DNA from: Pseudomonadota bacterium
Lineage (GTDB): Bacteria > Pseudomonadota > Alphaproteobacteria > Rhodobacterales > Rhodobacteraceae
DNA length: 64,000 bases
Direction: 5' to 3'
NCBI GenBank assembly: GCA_039184655.1
Contig: JBCDAZ010000002.1
Location: 8,594-72,593 of the forward strand
Shown: in pieces, positions 42,842 to 62,615 of the stretch
Layout: the number at the start of each line of letters is the position of its first letter
Position numbering within the stretch: the first letter of the stretch is position 1
Translations under genes and position numbers: made by a program
Notes under the pieces: generated by a model
Told to the model about the DNA's origin: nothing
What the model saw: the letters and a program-made list of their open reading frames with translations, nothing else
Databases searched by the model: none

Positions 42842-44218
42842 ATGAAACGTCTTGCCGCCTTTGTGACGTATTACGCGCGGCAACCGGGCGTGATGCGCCG
42901 GCATCTCGGCGATGCGGCGCGAACGCTCGCCCGACATGGCGTGAAATCGCTGCTGGCCGATATACGTGCGGTTTCGGCGCAAATCGCCGCGGATCGACGC
43001 CTGCAGCGCGTGGCGGCGGCAACACCGAAACCGCAGCTTACCCGCAATCCGGCGTCGGACCCGCGGGAGGGCACCATCGTCATCGTCGTCCATGACATGA
43101 CGCTGGGCGGCGCGCAGCAGGTGGCGCAGAGCTTTGCGGCCTGGCTGGTCCGGCAGAACCGCTTTGCGGTGCGCATCGTTGCCATGCGCGGCGGCCCGTT
43201 CAGGGCGCACTTCCAGGCGGTGGCGCCGGTTTTTTGTATTGCCGATCATGCGCGGCGGGATCCGCAGACCCTGTCAGCCGATCTTGCGCGCTGGGCGGGC
43301 CCTCAGGTCCGCGGTATCCTGGTCAACTCCGTCGCCTCGGGCCGCTTTTTCGACTATTGGAACGGGGCGGAGCCGGCCATCGGCTTTGTGCATGAGATGC
43401 CCAAGATCATCGAGCGCCATCGCGCCGCGCTGACGCTTCTGGCCGGGCGCGCGGACCGCCTGGTTGCCGGCAGTCTTGCTGTCTGCCGGGCGTTGGAGGC
43501 TCACGCCGATCTGCCGCCGCGCGTGCAGCTCTACCCCTTTGTCGATGACGACGCGCCCGCAATATCCCAGGATCGCGCCGGCCGGCAGGCGGCCCGGGCC
43601 GCGCTGGGTGCAAGCGCGGACGAGGTTCTGGTCTGCGGTTGCGGGGTCTTGCACTGGCGCAAGGCGCCCGAGCGCTTCGTCGATGTCGCGCGGCGGGTCT
43701 TGGCGCAGCATGACGGGCCGATCCGGTTCGTCTGGATCGGCGGCGGGCCGGATCTGGACGCCTGCCGAAGGCTGATACGCCGAGAAGGGTTGGACAAGCG
43801 CGTGCGCATCACCGATTATCAGGCCGATGCGACCGGCCTGCTGCGCGCGGCAGACATCTTCCTTCTCCCGTCAGTTGAGGATGCGTTCCCGCTCGTGGCC
43901 ATGCATGCCGCCCTGGCCGCGGCGCCCATTCTTTGCTTTGCGGAGGCAGGCGGTATGCCTGAGCTGGTCGCCCAAGGCTGCGGCACGGTGCTACCCAATG
44001 GCGATGTCGAGGCCATGGCGCAAGCGGTGTGCGCCTATGCCGCCGACCCGTTGCGCCGCCAGCGCGAAGGGGCGGTGGGACGAAAGATCGTCGCGGCCCG
44101 GATGACCGTCTCGCAAATCGGTCCGCATCTGCTCGACGCGCTGCTTGCGCAAAGCGCATCCGCGCCCGCTATGTCTTTGTCGGCGGCGCCAAGGCATGCC
44201 CGCCGCATCGCCGGATGA
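42842..44218 (+). CDS. Glycosyltransferase family 1 (GT4-like)
   Basis: The C-domain motif LLPSVEDAFPLVAMHAALAAAPILCFAEAGGMPELV corresponds to the E-x7-E region of the GT-B fold. Confidence 0.8.
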   Translation: MKRLAAFVTYYARQPGVMRRHLGDAARTLARHGVKSLLADIRAVSAQIAADRRLQRVAAATPKPQLTRNPASDPREGTIVIVVHDMTLGGAQQVAQSFAAWLVRQNRFAVRIVAMRGGPFRAHFQAVAPVFCIADHARRDPQTLSADLARWAGPQVRGILVNSVASGRFFDYWNGAEPAIGFVHEMPKIIERHRAALTLLAGRADRLVAGSLAVCRALEAHADLPPRVQLYPFVDDDAPAISQDRAGRQAARAALGASADEVLVCGCGVLHWRKAPERFVDVARRVLAQHDGPIRFVWIGGGPDLDACRRLIRREGLDKRVRITDYQADATGLLRAADIFLLPSVEDAFPLVAMHAALAAAPILCFAEAGGMPELVAQGCGTVLPNGDVEAMAQAVCAYAADPLRRQREGAVGRKIVAARMTVSQIGPHLLDALLAQSASAPAMSLSAAPRHARRIAG

Positions 44219-45762
44219 GCACGACGGCCTTGCATGCCGCCCTGCGCGCAAAGCCGAACGACGCGGCGCCGGGGGGCGCCCCTGGCCCTGTTAAGGACGT
44301 CACGGGCGTCACGGAGATCACCGACCCTGCCTTCCAGGCGGATCCCGATCCCGACCGCCCGCGGCTTCTTTTAATCGTACATCAGTTTTTCCCGCAGTTT
44401 CACAGCGGCACCGAGACCTTGTGCGAGCGCTGCGCCCGGGCTTACGTGGCGATGGGGTTTGCCGTCGATATCGTAACCTCGGTCATGGTCGACGAGGCCG
44501 CGCTGCCGCCGCTTTTGGCAAGCGATGTGCTGGATGCGCAGACCCGCGCCGTTTTGGAAGCGCCCGAACCGCCGCTGACGCGGCAGATCCGCTATGCCTA
44601 CGCGCCGCATATTGATGTTCATGCCTTCACCCACAGCCACGATCCGCGCCATGGCCGCCCGCGCTTTTTGCGCGAAGTGACCGAGCCGGCGATCGAGGCG
44701 CTGTTTGATCGGCTCTCCGAGGCAAGACGCTATCAGCGCGCGATCGTCTTTCACCTTCTCCATGTACCGCTGAAGGGCCTCGCCGGTCTCGCGGCGCGCG
44801 GCATCCCGATCAGTTTCGTGGCGACAGACTTCTTTGCCGTCTGCCCAATCGGCAGCCAGCAGTTTGAGGATGGCCGGCTTTGCCGCGGCCCCGGGCCGAT
44901 GTCGCTGGCCTGCGTGCGGCATCTTTCGACCGGGCAAGAGGGCTGGCTGGGCTGGGTGCAGCGGATCAACCCGACGCTGGTCTCGGCATTTTATTTATGG
45001 ATCTTTCAGCGTTTGGGTCCTTGGGCGCGTCTGCCGGTACATCCCTGGCAAAACCTCTATTTTTTGGTCGAGCGCAACCGCGCCTCGCGGGCTTTCTTGC
45101 GCACTTGCGACGTTGTGATTGCGCCATCATCGCGGGTGGCCGAGAGCCTTGCGACCGCCGGATTGCAAAAAAACCGTATCCGGCGTTTACCCTATGGCAT
45201 GCCGCCGCCGCGGCAGGCGACGCCGCCGGACCGGCTTGCCCAACCCGGGGTTCGATTGTGCTACGCCGCGCAAATCTCGCCCCGAAAGGGCTTGAACGTG
45301 CTGCTCGATGCGCTCGAACGCTTGCCCGAGAGCCTTGAGTGGCAGCTCGATATCTGGGGCGATGTGGCCCAGGGCGGGCGCTATGCCGCCCAGCAGGCCG
45401 CCCGGATCAACGGTTTTTGCGGCCGGGTCCGACTGTTGGGAACCTTTGCCAGCTACCGCATCCATGCAGTGCTGGGCGGGTATGACTATGTGGTGCTGCC
45501 ATCGACTTGGAGCGAGAATCTGCCGCTTGTTCTGCTGTCGGCCCTGCAGATCGGCCAGCCTGTGATCGTGTCCGATGCGCGCGGATTGCTGGATGCTTTT
45601 CCGGACGGGCGGGTGCATGGCCGGCGCTTCCGAATGGGCGACGCGGCGGATCTGGCCCGTGTGCTGGAAGAGGAGATCCGCGGGCGCCCGGCCTATGATC
45701 CGTCTGACGCGCCCCATATTCCTAGCGTGGAGGAGTTCGCGATCGCGCTTTTGGGCCGGTGA
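44215..45762 (+). CDS. Glycosyltransferase family 1 (GT4-like)
   Basis: ATGA overlap with the previous glycosyltransferase gene. Reads LLIVHQFFPQFHSGTE...VVLPSTWSENLPLVLLSALQIGQPVIVSDARG. Confidence 0.8.
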   Translation: MSTTALHAALRAKPNDAAPGGAPGPVKDVTGVTEITDPAFQADPDPDRPRLLLIVHQFFPQFHSGTETLCERCARAYVAMGFAVDIVTSVMVDEAALPPLLASDVLDAQTRAVLEAPEPPLTRQIRYAYAPHIDVHAFTHSHDPRHGRPRFLREVTEPAIEALFDRLSEARRYQRAIVFHLLHVPLKGLAGLAARGIPISFVATDFFAVCPIGSQQFEDGRLCRGPGPMSLACVRHLSTGQEGWLGWVQRINPTLVSAFYLWIFQRLGPWARLPVHPWQNLYFLVERNRASRAFLRTCDVVIAPSSRVAESLATAGLQKNRIRRLPYGMPPPRQATPPDRLAQPGVRLCYAAQISPRKGLNVLLDALERLPESLEWQLDIWGDVAQGGRYAAQQAARINGFCGRVRLLGTFASYRIHAVLGGYDYVVLPSTWSENLPLVLLSALQIGQPVIVSDARGLLDAFPDGRVHGRRFRMGDAADLARVLEEEIRGRPAYDPSDAPHIPSVEEFAIALLGR

Positions 45763-47433: not shown

Positions 47434-50199
47434 CTACCGCTCCGGGATCAGGATTTCGCGTTTGCCGACCTGGTTGGCCGCACCGACCACGCCCTGATCT
47501 TCCATCTGTTCGACCAGGCGGGCAGCTTTGTTATAGCCGATGCCGAGTTTGCGCTGGATATAGCTGGTGGAGCATTTTCGATCCTGCGCCACGATCGCCA
47601 CGGCCTGGTCGTAGAGCGCATCCTCGCCGCCGGGATTGCCCCCCAGCCCCAACACCAGATCGATCTCGCTTTCGGCCTCTTCGTCCGGCCCGTCGATCAC
47701 CCCGGCGACATAATCCGGCGCCCCGGTCAGCTTGAGATGGGCCACCACCTCCTCAACCTCTTCATCGGAACAGAAGGGCCCGTGCACGCGCGCGATCCGC
47801 GCCCCGCCGGCCATATAGAGCATGTCGCCCTGGCCCAGAAGCTGCTCGGCGCCCTGTTCGCCCAGAATGGTGCGGCTGTCGATCTTGGAGGTGACCTGAA
47901 AACTGATCCGGGTGGGAAAATTGGCTTTGATCGTGCCGGTGATGACATCGACCGAGGGGCGCTGGGTGGCCATGATGAGATGGATGCCGCTGGCCCGTGC
48001 CATTTGCGCCAGGCGTTGGATGCAGGCCTCGATCTCCTTGCCCGAAACCATCATCAGATCGGCCATCTCGTCGACGATGACAACGATATAGGGCATCGCT
48101 TCGGGATCGAAACGCTCCTCCTCGAAAATCGGCTCGCCCGTCGTCTCGTCGAACCCGGTCTGTACAACGCGGCTGAAGGCGTCGCCGCGGCTGAGCGCAT
48201 CGCGCACCCGGGCGTTGTAGCCCTCGATATTGCGCACCCCAAGCTTGGACATCTTGCGGTAGCGCTCCTCCATCTCGCCCACCACCCATTTGAGCGCCAC
48301 CACCGCTTTTTTGGGGTCGGTGACGACCGGAGAGAGGAGATGCGGGATCCCGTCATAGACCGAAAGCTCCAGCATCTTCGGATCGATCATGATCAGCCGG
48401 CATTCGGCCGGCGACAACCGGTAGAGCAGCGACAGGATCATGGTGTTGATCGCGACGGATTTGCCCGAGCCCGTGGTGCCGGCGATCAGAAGATGCGGCA
48501 TACGGGCCAGATTCGCGACCACAGGCTCGCCACCGATATCCTTGCCCAAGGCCAGCGGCAGCGGATGCGCGCTGTCCCCAAAAGCCGCCGAGGCCAGGAT
48601 TTCGCGCAGCAGCACCCGCTCGCGGGCCATGTTGGGCAGTTCGATCCCGATGACCGAGCGGCCTGGCACGGTTGCAATTCGCGCCGAGAGCGCGGACATC
48701 GAGCGGGCGATATCGTCCGCCAGACCGATGACCCGGGCCGCTTTCAGTCCCGGCGCGGGCTCAAGCTCGTAAAGCGTGACCACGGGGCCGGGCCGGACGG
48801 CCGTGATCTCGCCACGAATGCCGTAATCCTCCAACACCCCTTCGAGAAGCCGGGCATTCTCCTCCAACGCCTCGGTGGACATATGTTGGCGCAGCCGTTT
48901 CTCGGGGCTGCTCAAGAGCGACAGAGGCGGCGCGTCATAGGCCTCGTGCGTTTCCTCAAGCGGTAGGTCGGGTTGTGCTTCGGTTCTGGCCCGCCGGCTC
49001 GGGCGGATGCCGGGCTTGCTGCGGTGCCGGACGACGGGCTTTGGAGCGGCCGCGCCTTCGGCCCGTTCGGCGAGGCGATCGATCACGGGGCCCAGACGGG
49101 GCACACGCACACCATCGTCGGCCTCAGCAGACGAACCGAAGGCCGCATCGATATCGGCCCCGGCATCAAAGGACGGGCCCGGCGCCTCCGCATCGGTTCG
49201 GCGGGCCGCCATGGCCGCGGCGATGCGCGCCATCAGCCGTTCGTTTCCTGGCGCCGATCCTACGTCTCTGCGTTCTTCCGGCATGGCCGCAGATGTCGCT
49301 TGCGCAATTTCCGGCGCAGTACGGCCGATGCTGCGCCCCTGGTTTGCGGTGCGATTGGGCACGGCCGTATCGGACGATGCAAGGTGCAACGATCCCCGCG
49401 CTGCCTCGTCGATCCCCGCACCTTCCGCCCACGCTTCGGCCGCAAAGACAGTGCCCCGGCCTCCTGCCGCGTTCGGCCCCTCGGGCCGCATGTCGCGAGA
49501 TGTTCGTCGGCGCAGGGCCTGGCGCAGCGCCGATCGGATGCCGCGCAGAATGAGGCGAAATAGCGCCAGACAGAGCAAGGCGAGCAGGCGCATGCCGGAT
49601 GCGAGCGTGCCCAGCAGGCTCCGAAGCTCGGCCCAATTCATGCCCAGCCCCAGCGCCATCATCAGCAGCGCCAGAGCGCCAAGCAGGATGATGGCATACG
49701 GCAGCGCTGCAACCGGATCGACAGCCCCGGTCGTCAGCAAGGTCCGCAGGGCGCTGTCGCCCACCGCGCCGCCCAACCCATGCCGCGCTGCCCAGGATGC
49801 CGGCGGCACATGCGAAGACAGGAAGGCCGCCAGCACCAGAACGCCCAGCAATAAGAGCAGGGTCCGGGTCAGGGCGCGCTCCTCGCCCCGATGGACGATA
49901 AAGCGCAGCCCCCAAACGGCAAAACCCAGCGGCAGCGCCGCCGCGGCCCATCCGATCGAGAACATCAGCGCCCCTGCCAGATGCGCGCCGACCACGCCAA
50001 GCCGGTTTTGCGGCGCGTCGCCGGTAGCGTTGAAGGGGCTGGGATCGTCGGGGCTATAGCTGGCCAGCAGCGCGGCCAGCACTACAGCGGTGGCGATCAG
50101 CCCCAGGCCCAGAAGCTCTGCGCCGCGCCGGCGCAGCGCCGTGCGGGTGCCCTCGCCGATCAGCCCGGCAACGGGCGGGCGCTGCGAGGCCAGCGTCAC
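47434..50199 (-). CDS. ftsK: DNA translocase FtsK
   Basis: N-terminal TM helices, a long linker, the motor domain with Walker [10 protein letters not shown], Walker [12 protein letters not shown], and a C-terminal gamma winged-helix ([24 protein letters not shown]). The GTG start overlaps the upstream stop. Confidence 0.95.
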
Positions 50200-51389
50200 C
50201 GCGGATCCTCCGCGCCGGCAAGCACATCCCGCAAGGCTGTCAACCCGCGGCGCACCGCATCCGGTTCGGCCACCAGCGCCACGCGGATGTAGCCGGCGCC
50301 AGGGTTTTCTGAGCCGAGCTGCGGATCGCCGTCGCGCGATAGATAGCTACCGGGCAGCACTTTGACGCCGGACTCGCGCCAGAGTTGCCGGGTCGCCGCA
50401 ACATCGTCGGCTACGCGGATCCACAGGAAAAACCCGGCTTGCGGGGCACGATAGCCCGGCAGCCTGCCAAGCACCTCATCGGCGATAGCGTATTTTTCCT
50501 GATAGAGCGTGCGCGAGGCATCGACATGAGCCTCGTCGGCCCAGCATGCGGCCGCAGCCATCTGGGCGGGCAAGGGCAGCGGCGCGCCGGCATAGGCCCG
50601 CAGCCGGCGCAGCGCCGCGATTGCCTGGCGTCCGCCGGTAACGAAGCCCGAGCGCAGCCCGGGTAGGCTGGAGCGCTTGGAAAGCGAGTGGAAGGTCAGA
50701 ACGCGCTCAGGGTCGTGGTCCGCCTCCAGGATCCCGGTCGGCGGGCGGTCGCGCCAAATCTCGCAATAGCACTCATCGGCAAAGATGCGGAAATCATGCC
50801 GCTCGGCAAGGCAAAGCAGGTCCCTCCAATAGCGCTCATCGGCCACCGCGCCCTGCGGGTTGGCCGGCGAGCAGATATAGGCGGCGGTGCTGCGTGTCAG
50901 AATGTCTTCCGGGAGGGCGGCGAAATCGGGCAGAAAATCGGTTTCGGCTGTTGCTGGCACATAGACCGGCTCGGCCCCGACCGCGAGCGCCGCAACAGCG
51001 TAGCATTGGTAGAACGGGTTGGGGATCAGCACGGCCGGGCGCTTGCCGTTCTTTCGTTCGGGGCAAAGCGCGACGCAGGCGGCAAAGAGCCCTTCCCGCG
51101 TTCCATTGAGCGGAAAGACCATCTCCGGGCTGCGGGTCACGCCAAAGCGACGGGCGAGCCAGGCGCAGATGGCCGCCAGAAGATCGCTATGGCCGTCATT
51201 GGGCGGATAGACGCTGTACCCTGCCGCATGGCGCGTCAGAACCGCCTCCAGAAAGGGCGGCGGGGCGTGGCGCGGCTCGCCCAGCGACATGGCAATGGGT
51301 GCGCCGCCGGGCGCAAGATCGTCCAGCAAGGCGCGGAGGCGGGGAAAGGCATAGTCCGGCAGGTTCGAAAACCGCGCGGGAAATTCCAT
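50196..51389 (-). CDS. Class I/II PLP-dependent aminotransferase (DapC/AspC-like)
   Basis: The N-terminus [13 protein letters not shown], plus [15 protein letters not shown] carrying the PLP lysine, place it in the class I aminotransferase fold. Confidence 0.8.
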
Positions 51390-51591
51390 GATCTGCCTCT
51401 GATTTCAGGTGCCTGCCGGGCACTCTTCGTACCACCCATACCCGTAAGGGGTCCATCCGGTCCAGCCCGCACCAACTCCTCTGTGCCACGCTGGTCCTCC
51501 TGTGGCCCCGCCGACACAGGAAACAGCGTCTTTGCACATTACGATTGCCAAGCGGCGCGGGCGCGCGTTTGCCGCCAGCGGTCGCTCGACG

Positions 51592-51668
51592 CGCCACCCT
51601 GTCTGGGTCGCCACCCCGTCTTGGTCGCCGCCGCGTCTGGGTCGCCACCCTGTCTGGGTCGCCGGCAG
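51592..51668. repeat. 17-bp tandem repeat, ~4.5 copies (CGCCACCCTGTCTGGGT), upstream of mutS
   Basis: Copies 1 and 4 are identical; copies 2 and 3 carry 2-3 substitutions. The array ends 75 nt before the mutS ATG. Confidence 0.9.
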
Positions 51669-51743
51669 TTTCCCCAAGCCCGGCCCCATGCTAGAGCCGG
51701 GGATGCGCAACAGGGCCGAACAGCCGCATGTGACAGGGCAGCC

Positions 51744-54533
51744 ATGACCGCATCAAAGACCAGACCGGCTTCGGTTCAGTCGGGCAGCGCCGCGCCGGCC
51801 AAGGCTCAAACCGCCGGCGCGACGCCGGCCATGGCCCAGTATTTGCAGATCAAGCAAGAACACCCCGATGCCTTGTTGTTTTACCGGATGGGCGATTTCT
51901 ATGAGCTCTTTTTCCAAGACGCCGAAACCGCCTCGGCAGCGCTCGGGATCGCGCTCACCCGCCGCGGCAAGCACCAAGGTGCTGACATTCCCATGTGCGG
52001 CGTGCCGGTCCATGCCGCCGAGGGCTATCTGCACCGGTTGATCCGGCAGGGTCACCATGTGGCGGTCTGCGAGCAGATGGAGGATCCCGCCGAGGCCCGA
52101 AAAAGGGGTGCGAAAGCCGTCGTCGCCCGCGCCGTGGTGCGGCTCGTCACGCCCGGCACGCTGACCGAGGACAGCCTGTTGGAGACCGGCCACAGCAACC
52201 ATCTGGCCGCCTGGGCCGAGATCCGCGGGGCCGGGGCGCTCGCCTGGCTGGATCTTTCCACCGGAGGGTTGACGGCAACGCCCGCAACGGCGGCCGAGCT
52301 CGGCCCGCATCTGGCCCGTCTTGCTCCGGCCGAGCTTCTGATCGGCGGTGCCGCGGCCCGACCCGAGGCCGTGCTCCAGCATCTTGAGGCCGGCGGTACG
52401 GTGACCGAGCGTCCGGATGCCGCCTTCGACAGCGCCTCGGCCGAACGCCAGCTTTGCGGGCTGTTTGCGGTTGCCACGCTCGACGGGTTCGGCGCCTTCA
52501 CCCGCGCCGAGATCGCAGCGCTCGGGGCGCTGGTGGGGTATATCGAGATAACCCAGCGCGGGAAACTGCCGCGCCTCACACCCCCCAGGCGCGAAAGCCC
52601 GGGTAGTGTGATGGAGATCGACGCCGCGACACGGCGCAATTTGGAGCTGGTTCGCAGCCTCTCGGGCGGGCGCGACGGCGCGCTGCTCAGCACCATCGAC
52701 CGGACGGTGACTGCGGCCGGTGCGCGACTTCTGGAAACCCGGCTTGCCGGTCCTGCGACCGATCCTACCACCATCCGGGCACGCCACGATGCCGTGGCTT
52801 TCCTGATCGCGCGCAGGGTTCTTGCCGATCGGCTGGAGGGGTTTTTGCGCCGGGTCCCGGATATGGAGCGCGCCCTTGCCCGGCTGACGCTCGATCGCGG
52901 CGGCCCGCGGGATCTCGCAGCGCTGCGCGACGGGTTGGGCCAGGCGCTGGTGATTGCCGATACGCTCGCTCAAGAACAAGCTGAAACCCGGGCTCAAGCC
53001 GAAACCCGGGCCGAAACCCGGGCCGACACCCAGGCCGACACCCAGGCCGGGGACATGTCGCTGCCCACCCCGCTGGCTGCGGCGCTCGCGGCGATGACCG
53101 GCCATGATCCGCTTGTCGATGCGCTCGAGGCCGCCCTTGTGGCCGAACCGCCGCCCCATATCCGCGATGGCGGGTTCGTTGCGACGGGCCATAGCGCCGC
53201 GCTCGACGCGGTTCGTCGCCTGCGCGACGAGGGCCGCGCGGTCATCGCCGGCCTGCAAGCCGACTATCAGAAGACAACCGGCATCACCGCCCTAAAAATC
53301 CGGCACAATTCCGTGCTGGGCTATTTTATCGAAACGACCGCCACCCATGCGGCTCGGATGACCTCGCCACCGCTCTCAGAAACCTTCATCCATCGCCAGA
53401 CGACCGCCAACCAGCTGCGCTTTACGACCGTTGCGCTTTCCGAGCTCGAAAAGAAGATCCTCAATGCCGGCGCCCGCGCTGCCGAGATCGAGCGCGAGAT
53501 CTTCGAGGGGCTTGTGCAAATCCTGCGCGAAGAGGCCGATCGGATCGCGGCCGCAGCCGCGGCCCTGGCCGAAACCGACCTCACCCGCGCCTTTGCACGG
53601 CTTGCTGTAGAGGGCGACTGGTCGCGGCCGCAAATGACCGCAGCACGGCGCTTTTCGATCGAGGGGGGGCGACATCCGGTCGTTGAGGCGGCGTTGCGCA
53701 AATCCGGGCAGAGTTTTGTGCCCAATGGTTGCACGATGGACGCCGCGGCGCACCCGATCTGGCTGGTCACCGGGCCCAATATGGCCGGTAAATCGACTTT
53801 CCTGCGCCAGAATGCACTGATCGCCGTGCTCGCCCAGGCGGGGTCCTTCGTACCGGCCAGCCGCGCCGAGATCGGCGTGGTGCGCCAGCTTTTCAGCCGG
53901 GTCGGTGCGGCGGACGATCTGGCCCGCGGCCGGTCGACATTTATGGTCGAGATGGTCGAGACGGCTGCCATATTGAACCAGGCCGGGCCGGATGCGCTGG
54001 TTATTCTCGATGAGATCGGGCGCGGCACGGCGACCTTCGACGGTCTGTCCATTGCCTGGGCCACAGTCGAGCATTTGCATGACATCAATCGCTGCCGGAC
54101 TCTATTTGCCACGCATTACCATGAGCTGACTGGCTTGGCCGACCGGCTTGCCGGGGTGACCAACGCGACCGTTGCCGTGCGTGAATGGCGGGGTTCGGTT
54201 CTGTTTCTGCACGAGGTTCGGCCCGGCGCTGCGGACCGGTCCTACGGCGTGCAGGTCGCAAGGCTAGCCGGTCTGCCGGCATCGGTCGTGGCACGGGCCG
54301 GGGTGGTGCTGGCAGCACTCGAACAAGGCGAACGGCAGGGCGGTCGCGGCGCAGCGGCCCTGGTGGACGACCTGCCGCTTTTTTCTGCCGGTCAGGACGG
54401 GCCGGTCGCCCCGGCCGCTCCAACCGCCTCGCCTGTCGAGGAAAAGCTGCGCGGGGTTCTGCCCGACACGTTGTCGCCGCGCGCCGCGCTCGACCTGCTC
54501 TATGAACTCCGAGCCTTGGTCGACGAACGCTAG
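51744..54533 (+). CDS. mutS: DNA mismatch repair protein MutS
   Basis: Reads TPAMAQYLQIKQEHPDALLFYRMGDFYELFFQDA, with Walker A GPNMAGKST and the DELGRGT-like ILDEIGRGTATFDG. Start set at MTASKTRP; the 50688 upstream extension is antisense to the aminotransferase gene. Confidence 0.95.
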   Translation: MTASKTRPASVQSGSAAPAKAQTAGATPAMAQYLQIKQEHPDALLFYRMGDFYELFFQDAETASAALGIALTRRGKHQGADIPMCGVPVHAAEGYLHRLIRQGHHVAVCEQMEDPAEARKRGAKAVVARAVVRLVTPGTLTEDSLLETGHSNHLAAWAEIRGAGALAWLDLSTGGLTATPATAAELGPHLARLAPAELLIGGAAARPEAVLQHLEAGGTVTERPDAAFDSASAERQLCGLFAVATLDGFGAFTRAEIAALGALVGYIEITQRGKLPRLTPPRRESPGSVMEIDAATRRNLELVRSLSGGRDGALLSTIDRTVTAAGARLLETRLAGPATDPTTIRARHDAVAFLIARRVLADRLEGFLRRVPDMERALARLTLDRGGPRDLAALRDGLGQALVIADTLAQEQAETRAQAETRAETRADTQADTQAGDMSLPTPLAAALAAMTGHDPLVDALEAALVAEPPPHIRDGGFVATGHSAALDAVRRLRDEGRAVIAGLQADYQKTTGITALKIRHNSVLGYFIETTATHAARMTSPPLSETFIHRQTTANQLRFTTVALSELEKKILNAGARAAEIEREIFEGLVQILREEADRIAAAAAALAETDLTRAFARLAVEGDWSRPQMTAARRFSIEGGRHPVVEAALRKSGQSFVPNGCTMDAAAHPIWLVTGPNMAGKSTFLRQNALIAVLAQAGSFVPASRAEIGVVRQLFSRVGAADDLARGRSTFMVEMVETAAILNQAGPDALVILDEIGRGTATFDGLSIAWATVEHLHDINRCRTLFATHYHELTGLADRLAGVTNATVAVREWRGSVLFLHEVRPGAADRSYGVQVARLAGLPASVVARAGVVLAALEQGERQGGRGAAALVDDLPLFSAGQDGPVAPAAPTASPVEEKLRGVLPDTLSPRAALDLLYELRALVDER
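52977..53048. repeat. 12-bp tandem repeat family x~6 (GAAACCCGGGCC / GACACCCAGGCC), in frame in mutS (AETR / ADTQ)
   Basis: Direct reading; it encodes QAETRAQAETRAETRADTQADTQA. Confidence 0.9.
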
Positions 54534-55049: not shown

Positions 55050-55868
55050 TCAGAGCGTGATCCGCATCCCGTCCCGGGCAAACCGGCAGAATGCACCCTG
55101 ATCGGCAAGCGCGCGTTCCGCGCGCAGCAACTCCGCATCCCGCGCGCCCGGACCGTGATGCACGATCAGGGTCTGCGCAATGCCCGCATTCTGGCCGATC
55201 GCCCGCGCGCCGGGCCAACTCGAATGCCCCCAGCCCTTGCGCTGCGGATACTCCTCGGGCGAATAGGCCGCATCGATCAGCAAGAGGTCCGAGCCCCGCA
55301 CCAACCCGGTCAGATGCGCGTCGATCGCGGCATCGCCTTGCTCGTGATCGGTAACGATCGAAACGCAGCGGCCGGTCGCCTCGATCCGATACCCGATCGA
55401 TCCGCCGGGATGGTTGAGCGGCAGAAGCCCAACGCGAAATGGGTCGCGCGCCAGGCCGCTTTCGGGGATCTGTTCGACCGTAATGGGAAAGTTGCCCGGG
55501 ATCATAACCGGCCAGAGCGGCGGCGAGTAAAGCCTGTAAAGCGCCTCCAGCACCCGTTCGGCCGGCAGCGCCGTCCACAGCCGCACCCGGGTCTTCCGGG
55601 CGATCAGCGGCGCAAAGAAGCCCAGGCCGATCAGATGGTCGAAATGCGGGTGGGTTAGCAGGATGTCGAGCGTTTCCGGCGGACCAGCGGCCATCAGGCT
55701 TTCGCCCAGGGCGCGAATGCCCGATCCGCAATCGACAATCAGACGTTCGGTGCCAGCCGCGACTTCGTAACATGTCGTATCGCCACCGAATTCGGCTGTA
55801 TGCGTTCCTGGAACCGGCAGCGAGCCACGGCACCCCCACACCGTCAGCGTAACCGGTCCTGCATTCAT
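55050..55868 (-). CDS. MBL-fold metallo-hydrolase (Lactamase_B_2-like) with a class-II cyclic-nucleotide phosphodiesterase-like HxHxDH motif
   Basis: LLTHPHFDHLIGLGFF (HPHFDH at 55635-55652), an N-terminal WGCRGS, and later DHE/HH metal-ligand candidates. ATGA overlap with the upstream cNMP-binding gene. Confidence 0.85.
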   Translation of the reverse strand: MNAGPVTLTVWGCRGSLPVPGTHTAEFGGDTTCYEVAAGTERLIVDCGSGIRALGESLMAAGPPETLDILLTHPHFDHLIGLGFFAPLIARKTRVRLWTALPAERVLEALYRLYSPPLWPVMIPGNFPITVEQIPESGLARDPFRVGLLPLNHPGGSIGYRIEATGRCVSIVTDHEQGDAAIDAHLTGLVRGSDLLLIDAAYSPEEYPQRKGWGHSSWPGARAIGQNAGIAQTLIVHHGPGARDAELLRAERALADQGAFCRFARDGMRITL

Positions 55869-56335
55869 GCTTGCGACTGCATCTCTTCCAACTCGGCCCG
55901 GGTCCGCGCGAGTTCCTGCGTCGTTCGCTCCAGCCGGCCGGTGATCACGCGCAAAAGCTCCAGCGACATGGTCGGAAACTCCGCCAAAAGCCGGAACAGC
56001 GTGGCACGATCGACCCTAAGGGCGCGCACCGTACCGCTGGCGCGCACCGTCGCGGTCCGCGGGCTGTCCGTCAAAAGGGCCATCTCGCCGACAATATCGT
56101 TCTGCCCAAGCTGTGCAACGGTGGTTTCACGACCGCCGATTGCAATGATCACCGCCGCACACCCCTCCAATAGCACAAAGGCCGCGTCGCCTTCCTGGCC
56201 CTGCACCATCAGATCCTCTCCCTCAAGAAAGGTGCGCGCCTCTGCCATCAGGGCGAGCAGTTTAAGCTGGGCATGATCGATGCCGCGAAAGAGGGGCGAT
56301 GCGGCAAGGATGTCGGTTTCCTGATTGAGCTTCAT
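55865..56335 (-). CDS. Stand-alone cyclic nucleotide-binding domain protein (CAP_ED), 156 aa
   Basis: Reads LFRGIDHAQLKLLA...FLEGEDLMVQGQEGDAAFVLLEG...IVGEMALLTDSPRTATVRA. The phosphate-binding cassette lies at 56036-56095. Short C-terminal coiled-coil and no DNA-binding domain. Confidence 0.85.
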   Translation of the reverse strand: MKLNQETDILAASPLFRGIDHAQLKLLALMAEARTFLEGEDLMVQGQEGDAAFVLLEGCAAVIIAIGGRETTVAQLGQNDIVGEMALLTDSPRTATVRASGTVRALRVDRATLFRLLAEFPTMSLELLRVITGRLERTTQELARTRAELEEMQSQA

Positions 56336-56342
56336 CGCGGCG

Positions 56343-58967
56343 TTACCCCGTTTTCTTGCTGGGCGGGTGCTGGCGGTTCGGGGGCAAAGCAGGACGCAAA
56401 ATCGTCTCGAGCCGGCCGCCTGCGATCCGGAAGGCCTGGTCGCCCTCCTTCGCCAACTCCACCTGGGCGGACCCCAAAAGGATAGCGGCATCGGGCAGAA
56501 CCTGCCGCAGGGTTTTGCGGATCGCGACGCTTTCGGCCCCGGCATCGTCGAAAACCCCGTCCAGCACCAGCAGCGCCGGTTTGCTGAGCAGCGCCCGGCC
56601 CAACCCCAGCAGGCGCCGCTGCGTGGTCGACAAATTGTTGCCGCCAAACGCGATTTCGGTGCGCAACCCGGCCTGCAGCACGAAACCATGCAGATTGTGC
56701 TTAACCAGCCCGGCATCGAGCCGGTCTTCCAAAGCGGGCTTCGCATCGCGCCGGTCGAGCCTGGGCCGACCGCGCAAGATGTTTTCGACAAGCGGCAGCC
56801 CAGGCACATAGCCGTCGGCGTCAAAATAGGTGAACCGCGCCGCGGCGCGCCCGGCCTTCGGCATCGCCGCCCGTACGGCCTTACGCGCGGCGACCAGTCG
56901 TGCCCGGCGGGCGGGATCGTCCAGAATGCCCAGCCTGTGACGCTGCGGTATGATCTGCAGCGCCAACATGGTCAGCTTCGTGCGGTCTGCGCGGCCGAGC
57001 CGCCGCGCCCCGCGCCGGGCGCGCGATACGATCAGCGCATACTCCTCCCGCTCGGACGGCTCGATCAGCCCGATTTGATCCAAAAGCCGGGTGTCCTTGC
57101 CCAGGCGCGCAGTCAACCCATTGAGAACCCGCGCAGCTTCAAGGCCGACATCCTCGACCTCGTCCAGAACCCCCGCCAGCCGCAAGGCACGACACAACGC
57201 GGCATCGTTGGCCATCCGATGGGCCGAGATCGGCGCGTCCGGGACTCCAAAGAAAAGGTTCTCGGCTAGGCTGTAATTTTCCAGGTAGCGCGTATGATCC
57301 CAGCCTTCGACCAGATCGTCGAGCGCTTGATAGAGCTCCGGCTGCGCAATCGAGGCCCGAGCATTCAGCGCCGTTGCCACCAGATCCGGCTCGCGGCCGG
57401 GATCGATCGAAATGGTCAGGCCACGGGCGAAGAGCTCGCGCTCAAGACCCAGGGCTGTCAGGATCTCCACGGCGCGACGGTCGAATTCATCTGCATCGGC
57501 AACGCCGGCGCGCGGATAATCGACCCAGTCGAGATCCGGGCTGTCGGGCAGATTGCCCGTGGCCCGCGCTTCTTTAAGTCGGCGGGCCCAATCCGCGGGC
57601 CGCGGCCCGGCGGGGTGATCGCCGATCAGCCCGTAGGCTATGTTCTCGCGCAGGCTGCCGCGCAGCATATGCGGGGTTCGGTTGACATAGGCGATGTCGC
57701 GGGCGGCCCGGGCCAAAAGCACCGGACTGTATGTCTCGCCTTTGCCAAGCGCGGTCACTGCGCCCAAGCCGATGTCGCCCCTGCGCGGCGGCAAGAGCCC
57801 TGCACTCAGCCGCATCAGCTCCGGCCGCCCGCTCTCCTCCTCGCCGATCACAACAGTCGTCTGTCCCGGCGCCAGGGTCATCGACACATCCGCCACCAGC
57901 GCCGCCGGTGGTTCGCCTATCCCAACGCCACGAAAGGTGATGACCTGCCCATCCAGGGCGACGGGGTCCGGCGGATCCTCCAGCGGCGCATTTCCGAAGG
58001 CCTGGACCACCGCCTCGTAGCGCGCCGAGACATCCGACAGGGTCTGATAGTAGTTGAGGAGCTCGCGCCAAGGCGAGGCGATGTCCTTATAGGCGGCCAG
58101 GATCGCGACAAGCGCGCCAAGATCCATGCGGCCCTCGATGACCAGATAGCCACCAAAGGCGTAGAAAACAAAGGGTGTTATATTGTTGAAAATATTGTTT
58201 AGGAACTTGATCGCATATTTGAGAAGAAAAATCCGATAGCGATAGTCGAAGTTGAAATAAAGACGTTCGGAAAGACGGGCAAGGTGCCATTTCTGTGCGC
58301 CTGCCAGGCGCATCTCTTCGATGCCTGTGACGGTTTCGGAGATATCAGTCGTCATCTGGCGCACATTGCGGATACGCCTTTGGACCAGCCGCACGACGAT
58401 CCGTTGGATTTTCGGGATGATATAGGCCTGCACCGGAAACAGGATGACTGCGGCAAAGCCCAAAACCGGGTCTTGCGCCACGATGAAGCCCAGATAGACG
58501 AGAAGCTGGCCGCCCATATAGACGGGCGTTGCGATGATCTGCCCCGCAAAGCCGCCGATCGGTTCGACTTCGGCCGTGACGACCTGGACCACCTCGCCCG
58601 GGCTTACGCTGCGTATGCGGCCCATGGGCAGGCGCGAGACCCGGCTGTAAATCGTAAAGCGCATCCGGCGCAGGATGCGCTCGCCGGTCAACCCCTTGGT
58701 GATGTTGATGTAAAACTTCACGCCGTTATTGGCAAAGATCAGCAGTAGCAGCGCGCCGCAAAGCAAAAACAGGTAGGGAAGCTGCTCGAACGCAAAGCCG
58801 CCGAGAAAGTAAGGGAAGGCCGATCCGCCGAGCGCTTCGTTTACGATTTCCTTTGGCACATAAAGGCTTGCCAGGATCAGCGGGAAGGACAGGAAGGAGG
58901 CAAGAACGATGTAAAGCTGCCAACGCCAGGAGTAGGCCCAGACGAAATGCAGCAATGTGCGTTCCAA
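56343..58967 (-). CDS. ABC exporter-like protein: 6-TM type I exporter domain fused to a non-canonical nucleotide-binding-like domain with a ~330-aa insertion
   Basis: TTG start with GAGGAG 8 nt upstream. Six predicted TM helices in aa 1-300. Walker A position reads GEEESGRPE (57822-57872), the Q-loop position NRTP, the signature position LSTTQRR (56613-56633) and the Walker B position LLVLDGVFDD. Confidence 0.8.
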   Translation of the reverse strand: MERTLLHFVWAYSWRWQLYIVLASFLSFPLILASLYVPKEIVNEALGGSAFPYFLGGFAFEQLPYLFLLCGALLLLIFANNGVKFYINITKGLTGERILRRMRFTIYSRVSRLPMGRIRSVSPGEVVQVVTAEVEPIGGFAGQIIATPVYMGGQLLVYLGFIVAQDPVLGFAAVILFPVQAYIIPKIQRIVVRLVQRRIRNVRQMTTDISETVTGIEEMRLAGAQKWHLARLSERLYFNFDYRYRIFLLKYAIKFLNNIFNNITPFVFYAFGGYLVIEGRMDLGALVAILAAYKDIASPWRELLNYYQTLSDVSARYEAVVQAFGNAPLEDPPDPVALDGQVITFRGVGIGEPPAALVADVSMTLAPGQTTVVIGEEESGRPELMRLSAGLLPPRRGDIGLGAVTALGKGETYSPVLLARAARDIAYVNRTPHMLRGSLRENIAYGLIGDHPAGPRPADWARRLKEARATGNLPDSPDLDWVDYPRAGVADADEFDRRAVEILTALGLERELFARGLTISIDPGREPDLVATALNARASIAQPELYQALDDLVEGWDHTRYLENYSLAENLFFGVPDAPISAHRMANDAALCRALRLAGVLDEVEDVGLEAARVLNGLTARLGKDTRLLDQIGLIEPSEREEYALIVSRARRGARRLGRADRTKLTMLALQIIPQRHRLGILDDPARRARLVAARKAVRAAMPKAGRAAARFTYFDADGYVPGLPLVENILRGRPRLDRRDAKPALEDRLDAGLVKHNLHGFVLQAGLRTEIAFGGNNLSTTQRRLLGLGRALLSKPALLVLDGVFDDAGAESVAIRKTLRQVLPDAAILLGSAQVELAKEGDQAFRIAGGRLETILRPALPPNRQHPPSKKTG

Positions 58968-59050
58968 AAGGTCTTACTCCTCAGCCCCCCGTCAGCTTAG
59001 CCGAGGCGGCCGCGGATGGGCAATCGGTCTTCACCAGGCCCCGATTTTGC

Positions 59051-60598
59051 CTATCGGTCGGTCTCCAGCTGTGGCGATCGGCGTACGCCGCTTGCGCTAT
59101 TGGCAACGATGGGCAGCGCAATGGGTTGCAAGGGCGGGCGGTAGGTACGCTGGCCTTCGATCAGCCAGAACAGCAGGTTGTCGCCGAAAACGGCACTTTG
59201 GGTCAGGGCCACATGCTCTTCGGGCAAAAACAGAACCGAACTCCACTTCAGCGGCGTGCGCAGGCCGAACCGGTAGGGTGCGCCCTGCCGCTCGTCGAGC
59301 AGCGAGGAGGCGCGCAGCACCACCCCGTCACCCTCTTCAAAACCAGTAACGCGCAAGGCGCCGGTGGCGGGATCGACCTCGGCCGTCGCCGGGGTCGGCT
59401 GGCTGCCGCCGATCACAAGATAAAGGTTGATGCCCTCGGGCAGCGCCTCCACTGGCTGGTCCAGCGCTGCGTGCAGCTGTTTGGCCCGCATCAACGCCTC
59501 GGCCTGAAAGGCAAGCGCGCGACGCTGTCTTTCGGCCGGTTCCGGCACATCGGGCATCCAAATGGCAAGCTCCTCGGCGGCATCGGGGTCGGCCAGCCCC
59601 CAGCCCAGCCTTTGCCACAGCAAAGGGTCGAAAATATCCTCGATAGGTTCTTCGCTGTCGGCCCACAGGACGCGTCTATGTCGGTTTCGCGGCAACAGCG
59701 CGTAGGTTGAAAAATGCGTGCCGACCAGCGCTGCCGAATAAAAGGGCTGCAACGGGCCCAGTGATTTGCCGTTGACCAGGTTCTCCAGCGCAGTAATCGA
59801 CCCGGCATTGGGCGGGGCGATCAGCACCACATTGTTAAAAAAGGCCGTGCCCGCCCAGGTCAGCTCCGGCAGCGACCCGTCCTCGGGAAGATCCTGAGTG
59901 CCATACATCAGGTAGTAGCGCGCGATCAACGTGCCCATGGAATGGGCGATCAGGTTGAACTTTACCGGCCCTACATGGTCGACAGTAAAGGCGGAGCGGA
60001 GAGCCACCTGCTCGGCCTTGCGTCGAACATGGCGGTCCAGATCCCGTACCAGGGTGACCAGATCCCGCCGCCAATCATACGAAAAGGGAAAGGAGTTCGC
60101 ATCGGCCGGCGGTATCGGCGGCGCGACGGTCTGATCGCCCCGCGCAATCGTCAAAGGGTCCTCATGCGATATCCAGCCGCCAAGCTGAACAGTCTCCCGC
60201 AGCCGGCTATAGACCTCGACCTCCACCGGAACGCCCAAAACCTCTGGATAGGCACGCTCCAAAACGCCGGCAGGCAGCACGCTGTCGCGCAAATCCCGGT
60301 TCGGCGTGCTGCCGTCGCCCACAGGAAGGGCCAGCAGCCGATAGTCGACAGGATCGCTGGGGATCACCGACAGCCCGTCGCGGCGCCCCCAGACCTCGGT
60401 TCCGGTCTCAATATCGACCAGCCGCGATCCCAGCGTTCCCGGCAAATTGATGATCGGCAGACGCTCCGGCCCTTGGATCTCCGCCGCCTGGCCATAGATC
60501 GCTCTGAGGTTGGGAACCGCCTGCGGGACCCCGCAGCCGACAAGAAGCAGCAAACAAGGTATCCAGAGGGCGACGGGGCGACGGGTCAGACGAGGCAT
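59051..60598 (-). CDS. Lipoprotein, alpha/beta-hydrolase of the LCAT/PGAP1-like lipase family
   Basis: Lipobox LLLLVGC. Nucleophile elbow [14 protein letters not shown] (GxSxG type). About 515 aa. Start chosen at MPRLTRRP; the longer 60811 start would overlap the aspS promoter and start. Confidence 0.65.
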
Positions 60599-60809
60599 CG
60601 AGGCGTTCCTTGCACAGCGCGTCGACGCTAGACGGGCCGGCCGGTCACGGACAAGGGCTAATGCAAAACCGCCCCTGGCGGAGGATGCCGCAGAGTTCGG
60701 GGCGGCCTTGACATGGGACGATCGGCGCGCTTTTTCGGCGGCGGCGGGTCGGCCCGGTTGGAAGGCGGCGCGCCGACCCCGCATCCGCTGCAGAAAAAGT
60801 GAGACTGTC

Positions 60810-62615
60810 ATGCATGCCTACCGCACCCATAGCTGTGCCGGACTGACATCGCACGATGTCGGACAAACTGTGCGCCTCTCGGGCTGGGTTCACCGGGTGC
60901 GCGATCATGGCGGGGTGCTCTTTATTGATCTGCGCGACCATTATGGGATTACCCAGCTGCTGGCCGACCCAGACAGCCCAGCCTTCCATGCGGCCGAAGC
61001 GGTGCGCGCGGAATGGGTTATCCGCATCGACGGCGAGGTCAAGCGGCGCGCCCCGGAGCTGGCGAATCCCAAGATCCCGACAGGCGAGATCGAGGTTTTC
61101 ATCCGTGACTTGGAGGTGCTGTCGGCTGCGGCCGAGCTGCCTATGCCGGTCTTTGGCGATCTGGAGTATCCCGAAGAGACCCGGCTGACCTATCGCTTCC
61201 TCGATCTGCGGCGCGAGGCGCTGCACAACAATATTGTGCTGCGCAGCAAGGTGATCGCTTCGATCCGTAACCGGATGACGGAACAAGGGTTTGCCGAGTA
61301 TCAGACGCCGATCCTAACCGCGTCGAGCCCGGAAGGCGCGCGAGACTTTTTGGTGCCGTCGCGACTGCATCCCGGCAAGGTCTATGCCTTGCCCCAGGCG
61401 CCCCAGCAGTTCAAGCAGCTGATCATGGTGGCCGGCTTCGATCGCTATTTCCAGATCGCGCCCTGTTTTCGCGACGAAGACCCGCGCGCGGATCGCAGCC
61501 CGGGCGAGTTTTACCAGCTCGACATCGAGATGAGTTTTGTCACGCAAGAGGATGTGTTTCAGGCCATCGAGCCGGTGATGCGCGGCGTCTTCGAGGAGTT
61601 CGCGCCGGTCGATAGGCATACTGGCGCCGCCTGGCCGGTCACGGCCGACTTTCCGCGCATCGCCTATCGCGACGCAATGCTCTGGTACGGCTCGGACAAG
61701 CCCGACCTGCGCAATCCACTTAAGATGCAGATCGTCTCGGCGCATTTTGCCGGCTCGGGCTTTACGATCTTTGCCAGTCTCTTGGAGCAGGATGGGCATG
61801 AAGTGCGCGCAATCCCTGCACCGGGCGGCGGGTCTCGGGCCTTTTGCGACCGCATGAACGCTTTTGCGCAAAAAGAAGGCCTGCCCGGCATGGGGTATAT
61901 TTTCTGGCGCGAGGAGGCGGGCGCGATTGTCGGCGCAGGGCCGATCGCCAAAAATATCGGGCCGGAGCGGACCGAGGCGCTTCGCCGACAGCTGGGCCTG
62001 GATGCGGGCGATGCGGCGTTCTTTTTGGGCGGCAAGCCCTCGGGCTTCGAGGCGGTGGCCGGCAAGGCGCGCAACGAGATCGGGCACGCGCTGGGCCTGA
62101 CCGACGAAAAGCGGTTCGATTTCTGCTGGATCGTCGACTTTCCGATGTTTGAACGCGACGTGGAAACCGGCGAACTCGACTTTTCGCACAACCCTTTTTC
62201 GATGCCGCAGGGCGGGCTGGCCGCGCTGCATACGCAGGATCCGCTGACGGTCCTGGGCTATCAGTACGATATCGTCTGCAATGGGGTGGAGTTGAGTTCG
62301 GGCGCGATCCGGAACCACCGCCCGGAAATTCTCTACAAGGCTTTTGAGATCGTCGGCAAGGATGCGGCTTTCGTGGACAGCAATTTTGGCGGCATGGTCA
62401 GCGCCTTCAAATTCGGGGCACCGCCGCATGGCGGGATCGCGCCGGGGATCGACCGGATCGTGATGCTGCTGGCCGGTGCCGAGAATATCCGCGAAGTGAT
62501 CATGTTTCCCATGAACCAGAGGGCAGAGGATCTGATGATGGGTGCACCGTCTGCGCCTAGCAATGCGCAAATGCGCGAGCTTGGCATGCGGTTCCTGCCC
62601 CGCGACGACGGTTAA
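60810..62615 (+). CDS. aspS: Aspartate--tRNA ligase
   Basis: Reads [13 protein letters not shown]...[26 protein letters not shown], with class II motifs [19 protein letters not shown] and [14 protein letters not shown]. Confidence 0.95.

Follow-up and report, generated by a model that had tools for sequence, protein, structure and literature searches.

A 64,000-nucleotide stretch of contig JBCDAZ010000002.1 from a member of the Rhodobacteraceae (hereafter the window) contains a three-gene operon encoding a protein related to ATP-binding cassette (ABC) exporters, a stand-alone protein predicted to bind cyclic nucleoside monophosphates (cNMP), and a hydrolase of the metallo-β-lactamase (MBL) fold. 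The catalytic motifs of the nucleotide-binding domain (NBD) of the ABC-like protein are degenerate, and the degeneracy extends to its whole family, in which the gene for the cNMP-binding protein is an almost invariable neighbor. On balance, we regard the operon as specifying a membrane device controlled by a cyclic nucleotide, an assessment that covers all the steps of the explanation jointly. We infer the functions of the module from sequence, predicted structure, and comparative genomics. The operon has the following layout (window coordinates).

58977-58982, minus strand: Shine-Dalgarno-like GAGGAG, 9 nt upstream of the TTG codon of the ABC-like gene (sequence)
56343-58967, minus strand: ABC-exporter-like gene, 874 residues, TTG start at 58967-58965, TAA stop at 56343-56345 (open reading frame and translation)
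56336-56342, minus strand: 7-nt spacer from the TAA of the ABC-like gene to the ATG (56335) of the cNMP-binding gene (sequence)
55865-56335, minus strand: stand-alone cyclic-nucleotide-binding (CAP_ED) gene, 156 residues (open reading frame, PF00027)
55865-55868, minus strand: ATGA overlap, the TGA of the cNMP-binding gene sharing bases with the ATG of the MBL gene (sequence)
55050-55868, minus strand: MBL-fold hydrolase gene, 272 residues (open reading frame, PF12706)

A first-pass annotation of the window had described three tightly packed genes on the minus strand, with 7 nt between the first two and an ATGA overlap between the last two, and had read them as one operon; sequence, translation, and gene order are all in agreement with this description. 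The TTG start of the ABC-like gene is backed by homologues, which share the N-terminus MERTL or MEKSLF, and NCBI protein P0001 is 100% identical to the ABC-like protein across all 874 residues. Database names of the proteins are generic ('ABC transporter transmembrane domain-containing protein', 'MBL fold metallo-hydrolase'), and no NCBIfam model reached its cut-off for any of the three. The Pfam families proposed for a search were recovered in the respective proteins: PF00664 and, in part, PF00005 in the first, PF00027 in the second, and PF12706 in the third.

The ABC-like protein keeps the exporter fold and a degenerate, enlarged NBD

The membrane part of the ABC-like protein matched PF00664 with 58.6 bits (cut-off 28) over residues 35-291. 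The match to PF00005 was partial (33.5 bits, residues 359-475 only). An AlphaFold2 model built on the family alignment had a mean predicted local distance difference test score (pLDDT) of 87.8 and a predicted template modelling score of 0.83, and its top Foldseek matches were TmrAB, PCAT1, ABCB10, and MsbA (E about 1e-12). The exporter domain with six transmembrane segments seen in the first reading was thus recovered by Pfam, by modelling, and by structural comparison, and the protein is confidently predicted to adopt the type IV (MsbA/PCAT-like) exporter fold. The transmembrane domain is the best-conserved part of the family, with the motifs TAEVEP, KF.NN, and AAYKD.A.PW. Relatives typically have about 860-890 residues. 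A decaying pseudogene was ruled out by the mean column identity of 45%, the many invariant residues, and the confident model.

The register of the NBD motifs was taken from a HMMER alignment with PCAT1, an exporter of solved structure, and agreed with an alignment of 57 relatives (34-73% identity), on which the motif counts are based. The domains and motifs are located as follows.

57993-58967, minus strand: transmembrane domain, residues 1-325 (Pfam match 35-291; model helices H5-325; invariant columns)
57819-57845, minus strand: degenerate Walker A GEEESGRPE (canonical GxxGxGK[ST]), opposite GESGSGKTT of PCAT1
57672-57686, minus strand: Q-loop position, VNRTP, with Arg430 in place of Gln (PCAT1 alignment)
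56688-57620, minus strand: NBD insertion of about 310 residues (450-760), between the first ENIAYG motif (residue ~446) and the signature
56619-56633, minus strand: degenerate ABC signature LSTTQ (canonical LSGGQ), opposite LSEGQ of PCAT1
56556-56573, minus strand: degenerate Walker B LLVLDG, with Gly replacing the catalytic Glu, opposite ILILDE of PCAT1
56457-56483, minus strand: H-loop region ILLGSAQVE, without His at the H-loop position

The full catalytic set (Walker A, Q-loop, signature, Walker B, H-loop) is absent from the window protein. Every catalytic motif had been reported as substituted from the letters alone, and translation together with the PCAT1 register led to the same substitutions. 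The degeneracy is real since the PCAT1 alignment places each motif in register; that the motifs had been read in the wrong register was ruled out by this alignment and by that of the 57 relatives. Among the latter, the Walker A Lys was present in 11 proteins and replaced by Arg in 44, and the position following it was occupied by Ser or Thr in 20. The Q-loop Gln was kept in just three relatives, the catalytic Glu in 19, and the H-loop His in 13. At most four of the six catalytic residues occurred together in any one protein. Thus, NBD degeneracy is a trait of the whole family and not of the window gene alone. These substitutions point to a loss of ATPase activity. The acidic P-loop (GEEESGRPE) of the window lineage makes it most likely that its protein can neither hydrolyse ATP nor bind it tightly.

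The insertion of about 310 residues, on which the first-pass annotation had made no comment, consists of two extra copies of a unit formed by the Q-loop strand, the ENLxFG helix, and the helical subdomain, as established by profile-profile comparison. Residues 521-690 aligned with residues 691-800 with a probability of 97.7% (hhalign, E 2.4e-12), and residues 396-520 with residues 521-690 with a probability of 84.5% (E 7e-6). The helical subdomain of the NBD is therefore triplicated. The insertion was modelled at a pLDDT above 90 and contains polar residues that are invariant in the family (E466, W481, R537, N570, R678, R695, and N729).

The cNMP-binding protein is the conserved partner of the ABC-like protein

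The 156-residue protein matched PF00027 with 68 bits (cut-off 27.5), ends in a C-terminal helix, and has no output domain. Its best match in the PDB was the cyclic-nucleotide-binding (CNB) domain of the RI-alpha subunit of protein kinase A (PKA; E 1e-23), with whose phosphate-binding cassette, GEIALLMNRPRAATVVA, its own pairs.

56039-56089, minus strand: phosphate-binding cassette GEMALLTDSPRTATVRA (translation)

The pattern GE..A.L....PRTATV.A of this cassette is conserved across 79 orthologues, and GEMALLTDSPRTATVRA contains the Gly-Glu and Arg-[ST]-Ala elements that characterize the CAP_ED cassette. The protein had been described as a bare CAP_ED domain with an intact cassette, and this is what was found: PF00027 was the only domain detected, and the cassette is PKA-like. 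The HTH_Crp domain of CRP/FNR regulators is missing, and the NCBIfam models of CRP and FtrB scored 27-40 bits against cut-offs of 211-300. A second cNMP reader was observed in the closest metagenome-assembled genome (MAG) with a long contig, in which a CRP-family factor (cNMP_binding and HTH_Crp_2; L088:13992-14702) is encoded immediately downstream of the MBL gene and ahead of mutS.

Conservation of the gene pair was assessed by scanning one genome per species from 185,579 species, in which 564 stretches were found to encode relatives of the ABC-like protein. Neighborhoods were counted in the best 80 of the 564 loci, almost all from Alphaproteobacteria. An orthologue of the cNMP-binding protein was encoded in 78 of the 80 loci, and in 76 its gene followed the ABC-like gene immediately and in the same orientation. 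With 564 stretches encoding relatives and synteny in 76 of the 80 best loci, the pairing is far beyond chance.

Gene fusions were searched for with the NBD insertion alone as a query against 1.84 billion representative proteins (clusters at 50% identity), which returned 559 matches at E≤1e-3. In 34 of the 150 best representatives, which are more distant relatives, the ABC-like protein continues at its C-terminus into a cNMP-binding domain; 24 of the 34 fusions are full-length (990-1206 residues). All nine fusions tested against Pfam were confirmed, one of them also containing a GGDEF domain. The NBD motifs are degenerate in the fused proteins as well. One fused gene (P0264) overlaps a class III cyclase gene. 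Another (P0267) is preceded by a gene for an Apyc1-like MBL protein, 27% identical to the window MBL protein over 131 residues, which represents an independent recruitment. A third has an HGSNAT-type acyltransferase gene downstream. The first-pass annotation had tied the cNMP reader functionally to the ABC-like protein, and adjacency in 76 of 80 loci and fusion in 34 of 150 distant relatives both support this view. The combination of synteny and fusions therefore argues that the CAP_ED protein is a physical regulatory partner of the ABC-like protein. The triple fusion of ABC-like, cNMP-binding, and GGDEF domains (P0283, 1206 residues) links the family to signalling by cyclic di-GMP (c-di-GMP).

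The MBL protein is a candidate phosphodiesterase found with the pair in some lineages

The MBL gene is third in 30 of the 80 loci, in the clade of the window and in Stappiaceae, Rhodobiaceae, Tepidamorphaceae, and Afifella. Since it is limited to these 30 loci, the pair rather than the trio is the conserved unit. Co-occurrence of the three genes across Alphaproteobacteria, which had been proposed as a check, therefore holds for the ABC-like and cNMP-binding genes but not for the MBL gene, a lineage-specific accessory. In Rhodospirillales, the third gene encodes a Methyltransf_17 protein (PF12692) instead. The latter (L072:11198-11689 and 28 other loci) and the MBL gene are almost mutually exclusive, with one overlap in 29 loci, and a His_Phos_1 gene (28 loci) never occurs together with the MBL gene.

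A class III cyclase gene (PF00211) is located one to three genes past the MBL gene in 23 of the 30 loci containing the latter, and in none of the 50 loci lacking it. The 23 loci do not represent independent events because they come from related lineages. In Roseibium, a 404-residue protein with a weak C-terminal helix-turn-helix of the sigma70_r4/LuxR type is encoded between the MBL and cyclase genes (L013:12369-13583; cluster 45, 7 loci). No cyclase was detected by tblastn within the 64-kb window, as had been noted in the first reading.

The 272-residue MBL protein matched PF12706 (59.2 bits) and PF00753; no other family, including PF02112, was found in a Pfam scan at E≤0.1. Its metal-binding motif has the following location.

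55635-55655, minus strand: metal-binding motif THPHFDH, which fits [T/S]HxHxDH (translation)

All metal ligands are invariant in the family, which also has motifs of its own, WGxRGS..PG..T..YGG.T at the N-terminus, GWGHS, and FHHDP. The AlphaFold2 model (pLDDT 94.6) and the sequence both had YhfI of Bacillus subtilis (6KNS) as their top match (E 2e-6 in sequence; E 4e-16 and a TM-score of 0.73-0.82 in Foldseek), with BA1088 (1ZKP) beside it among the best matches. The PhnP-family diphosphatase 6B9V, ELAC1/ZiPD, PhnP, nucleotide-bound MBL proteins of Brucella, and Apyc1 (7U2R) ranked below YhfI in the structural search.

YhfI, Rv1339, and CpdA of Corynebacterium glutamicum have been designated 'atypical class-II' cAMP phosphodiesterases with the motif [T/S]HxHxDH (PMC9293780). 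The window MBL protein has the three features of this group, namely the PF12706 fold, the motif, and a position nearest to YhfI and Rv1339. The fold and THPHFDH are also shared with the phage anti-Pycsar protein Apyc1, and weak matches to the Apyc1 Pfam family were obtained with MBL homologues. The window MBL protein differs from the characterized enzymes in its low identity (only about 20% to YhfI), its own family motifs, and a score of 45.9 bits against a cut-off of 400 for NF041851, the equivalog model of cNMP phosphodiesterases. The first reading of a class-II-like phosphodiesterase has thus to be amended. Canonical class-II identity was ruled out, since PF02112 is absent and the motif is HPHFDH rather than HxHLDH, and the protein lies in the branch of RNase Z, YhfI, and PhnP; it has the atypical class-II motif, and its nearest structure is YhfI. 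Identity as RNase Z or PhnP was rejected on cut-offs (TIGR02651, 46.9 against 293 bits; NF000801, 49.1 against 252; TIGR03307, 25.8 against 272) and on context, no phn genes being present in the 80 loci; the PhnP names given to homologues by JGI are automatic. The MBL protein is likely a candidate cyclic-nucleotide phosphodiesterase of the YhfI/RNase Z/PhnP branch. Because the profile scores do not discriminate, this assignment rests mainly on genomic context. One MBL homologue (P0158, 435 residues, 46% identity) is fused to STAS/STAS_2 domains of the anti-sigma-antagonist type.

The cyclases of the sister loci have Lys in vdKflGDG and Thr in FTViGdaVN at the specificity positions, residues which we take to specify ATP in class III cyclases. 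The ligand of the CAP_ED protein would be a cyclic nucleotide, and cAMP is likely since these residues specify ATP.

A glycosyltransferase operon adjoins the pair in most relatives

In 69 of 81 loci (~85%), the pair is preceded by a divergent operon comprising two GT28-like and two GT4 glycosyltransferase genes and a deacetylase-like gene; some copies also include a gene for a His_Phos_1 phosphatase or a PAS-GGDEF gene. The PAS-GGDEF gene of Azospirillum halopraeferens (L081:6201-7199), located within this operon, provides a further link to c-di-GMP. In the clade that comprises the window, L001, L002, Paroceanicella profunda, and a related MAG, the trio is on its own amid the housekeeping genes hrcA-grpE, mutS, and aspS; in Paroceanicella and the related MAG it is placed between hrcA-grpE and mutS. 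The genes of the trio overlap or nearly so in this clade. No copy of the four-glycosyltransferase operon was found in the 64-kb window by tblastn, which returned only a weak unrelated GT4 match (45196-45678, 30% identity) and an SDR-type dehydrogenase. The description of the trio as a self-contained module does not hold throughout: the sister lineages add a class III cyclase, and ~85% of relatives adjoin the glycosyltransferase operon.

Relation to known systems

ABC exporters are defined by ATP-driven dimerization of their NBDs. The ABC-like family is kin both to CNB-regulated exporters and to ABC proteins with degenerate sites, and is unusual in the loss of the full catalytic set, the triplicated helical subdomain, and the obligate cNMP partner. 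No description of the family or of its architecture was found in full-text literature searches.

HetC of Nostoc PCC 7120 is a peptidase-containing ABC exporter with an N-terminal CNB domain that binds ppGpp and an essential ATPase, and is a precedent for an ABC exporter that cannot do without its CNB domain (PMC10986499). Like HetC and the NHLP/NHLM exporters (TIGR03796, TIGR03797, TIGR03896), the system described here combines a type IV exporter fold with a CAP_ED-type regulator; these families were the top neighbors of the ABC-like protein among NCBIfam models and PDB sequences, and TIGR03896 also weakly matched the cNMP-binding protein. However, the scores are far from those of NHLP/NHLM members (TIGR03796, 93.2 bits against a cut-off of 853; TIGR03797, 71.1 against 709; TIGR03896, 40.7 against 161), the window protein has no C39 peptidase domain, and no precursor-peptide context was present in the 80 loci. 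In contrast to HetC, the CNB domain is separate or C-terminal with a PKA-like cassette, the NBD appears to be non-catalytic, and the helical subdomain is triplicated.

In TM287/288, TmrAB, CFTR, and SUR, a degenerate nucleotide site is reused for regulation and one competent site is kept. CFTR is a channel and SUR a channel regulator, neither of them being a pump. The ABC-like protein has the same fold and has likewise lost catalytic residues at the nucleotide site, but all five motifs are degenerate in its only chain, and this throughout the family. Both sites of a homodimer would consequently be impaired.

The SLiPT proteins SbmA and BacA have the membrane fold of ABC exporters and perform alternating access on a proton gradient without ATP hydrolysis (PMC13316013). 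Unlike SbmA, which is an importer without an NBD, the ABC-like protein has kept and enlarged an NBD-shaped domain, which is apparently coupled to a cNMP receptor. Polysaccharide secretion gated by a second messenger is represented by the c-di-GMP receptors BcsA-PilZ, Alg44, PelD, and PgaCD. The resemblance lies in the attachment of a nucleotide-messenger receptor to the putative export machinery of a glycosyltransferase cluster, with a GGDEF gene or fusion in some relatives. The differences are that the messenger would be a cyclic mononucleotide acting through CAP_ED, that the receptor is paired with an ABC-like protein and not a synthase, and that the window lineage has no adjacent glycosyltransferases.

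Proposed mechanism and alternative explanations

The mechanism that we favor builds on the observed gene order, folds, motif degeneracy, domain triplication, synteny, and fusions, from which we infer the ligand, the loss of ATPase activity, docking, phosphodiesterase activity, the energy source, and the cargo. The 874-residue protein would most likely be a homodimer with the type IV (MsbA/PCAT-like) exporter fold, in which the extra copies of the helical subdomain of each NBD would form a large, highly conserved cytoplasmic platform. The 156-residue CAP_ED protein would be a detachable regulatory subunit that docks on, or is released from, this platform upon binding of cAMP (or cGMP). By controlling closure of the NBD-like dimer and access to the membrane domain, in place of the ATP switch, the cNMP reader would gate the ABC-like protein. 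The MBL protein would act as a local phosphodiesterase, hydrolysing the cyclic nucleotide and resetting the switch, and the cyclase would be encoded elsewhere in the window genome. Transport could be driven by the substrate gradient or by the proton-motive force; SbmA/BacA, in which this membrane fold functions in the absence of NBDs, are a precedent for ATP-free transport. In most relatives, the cargo would probably be a glycoconjugate produced by the adjacent four-glycosyltransferase operon.

A broader claim is offered tentatively. The family may represent a new functional class in which a cyclic-nucleotide switch has replaced the ATP engine: the CAP_ED subunit, separate or fused, would dock on the triplicated platform and gate a non-hydrolysing exporter or channel, with local cyclases as writer and the MBL protein as eraser. 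Such a device would be a bacterial counterpart of cyclic-nucleotide-gated channels built on the principle of CFTR and SbmA, and would mediate cAMP-gated glycoconjugate export in most Alphaproteobacteria. The family concerned is large and conserved, being represented by at least 564 genome stretches and by 559 clusters at 50% identity, and all its catalytic motifs are degenerate. If the proposal is correct, the ABC scaffold has been turned from an energy-coupled pump into a ligand-gated device, and alphaproteobacterial cAMP signalling has a direct post-translational target in the membrane; to our knowledge, its targets have so far been mostly CRP-type transcription factors. It would also add a cyclic-mononucleotide case to second-messenger-gated glycan export, now known for c-di-GMP. 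The family can be studied experimentally since its members occur in culturable hosts (Roseibium aggregatum, Stappia, Pseudovibrio, Azospirillum, and Paroceanicella profunda).

Several observations weigh against the mechanism. None of the 47 aligned MBL members matched NF041851 (best E 1e-18) better than RNase Z models (best E 3e-27), all scores being far below the cut-offs, and MBL homologues also occur in unrelated contexts without any cNMP genes. The MBL and cyclase genes are associated chiefly in a small number of families that belong to a single order. The Walker A Lys is kept in 11 of the 57 relatives, and the catalytic Glu or the H-loop His in some, so that nucleotide binding or weak hydrolysis may persist in part of the family. 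CAP_ED domains can take other ligands, as HetC binds ppGpp (PMC10986499). Finally, the window lineage has no glycosyltransferase operon nearby, and for this reason the cargo suggested for other relatives may not transfer to it.

The MBL protein might not be a cNMP phosphodiesterase. It would then be an RNase Z- or PhnP-like enzyme acting on 2',3'-cNMPs, RNA, a sugar-phosphate or lipid-linked intermediate, or the exported product, and its place in the operon would reflect substrate processing. The profile scores and the unrelated contexts just mentioned are compatible with such a role, as are the automatic PhnP names and the ranking of 6B9V, ELAC1, ZiPD, and PhnP just under YhfI. We nevertheless consider it the less probable assignment. 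The RNase Z and PhnP cut-offs are missed widely (~49 bits against 252-293 and 25.8 against 272), and the nearest structure, YhfI, has been grouped with the cAMP phosphodiesterases Rv1339 and CpdA (PMC9293780). In addition, co-occurrence with the class III cyclase is strict (23 loci with both genes, none with the cyclase and without the MBL gene), and a different, Apyc1-like MBL protein has been recruited independently beside a fused ABC-cNMP gene.

The ABC-like protein could also be a SUR-like membrane sensor or scaffold rather than a transporter, coupling a membrane or periplasmic cue to cNMP signalling; it might, for instance, sequester the CAP_ED protein or control the cyclase. The loss of catalytic residues, the large conserved cytoplasmic platform, the fusions to cNMP and GGDEF signalling domains, the cyclase or response regulator gene directly next in L089, and the occurrence of the trio without any biosynthetic genes in the window lineage are all consistent with a sensor. 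The membrane domain, however, is the most conserved part of the protein and has the full exporter architecture, and ~85% of close relatives are divergent from the four-glycosyltransferase operon, the usual setting of an exporter or flippase. A role as sensor or scaffold is unlikely.

Retention of an ATP-driven export cycle is quite unlikely as well. In such a scheme, Arg would substitute for the Walker A Lys, or the protein would pair with a canonical ABC half-transporter encoded elsewhere, and the CAP_ED protein would only modulate the ATP cycle, as proposed for HetC, in which a CNB domain is joined to an essential ATPase (PMC10986499). The family as a whole has kept the P-loop scaffold G..GSG[RK] together with the signature LS..Q, and the gene for a canonical peptide-importer ATPase (cluster 11) is found near the cluster in 28 loci. 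However, no relative has the complete catalytic set, and the window P-loop, with its three Glu residues, has Pro where Ser/Thr would be expected. Pairing with another half-transporter would yield a heterodimer with two impaired sites, Walker A, Walker B, and signature being degenerate in the same chain, and no second exporter gene is conserved in the neighborhood of the 80 loci. Cluster 11, a GsiA/YejF-type importer ATPase belonging to a neighboring operon, was rejected as a substitute motor.

Membership in a Pycsar-like anti-phage system, in which a cyclase-made nucleotide would activate a killing membrane effector under CNB control and the MBL protein would be an Apyc1-like safety valve, is very improbable: although the CAP_ED protein matched the CNB part of PycTIR (51.8 bits), the sister-locus cyclases matched PycC models (79-82 bits), and MBL homologues gave weak Apyc1 matches, these matches are generic at the domain level, the ABC-like and MBL proteins matched no PADLOC model, the cyclase specificity residues are of the ATP type, the window has no cyclase, and the genes are vertically conserved between housekeeping genes (hrcA-grpE, mutS, aspS) in many alphaproteobacterial families and not in a variable island.

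Other features of the window

Within 53.5-61.5 kb, no structured RNA, repeat, promoter, or terminator rose above background. The ABC-like gene is preceded, at a distance of 83 nt, by a gene for an LCAT-like alpha/beta hydrolase (59051-60811, minus strand; 586 residues, PF02450, GxSxG motif HSMGT, lipoprotein-like LLLLVGC signal); the hydrolase gene was rejected as a part of the module as it is common only to L001. At 6-11 kb from the trio are an FtsK gene (47434-50199, minus strand) and a 577-residue GT4 gene (44029-45762, plus strand), whose product is 30% identical over 169 residues to a GT4 protein of the conserved operon. The G+C content falls to 0.56 at 58000-58999, the 5' part of the ABC-like gene encoding the membrane domain, against ~0.65 in the flanks.

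Two tandem repeats are associated with mutS. The first (52977-53049; 12/18-nt, about 4 copies, 94-95% matches) lies inside the gene and encodes a low-complexity AETRAQAETRAETRADTQADTQAG insertion in MutS. The second (51592-51663; 17-nt, 4.2 copies of CGCCACCCCGTCTGGGT, 85% matches) is located just upstream of the conserved core. The longest open reading frame (50688-54533, 1281 residues) over-extends the N-terminus of MutS, because the core begins at ~51840, past the 17-nt repeat.

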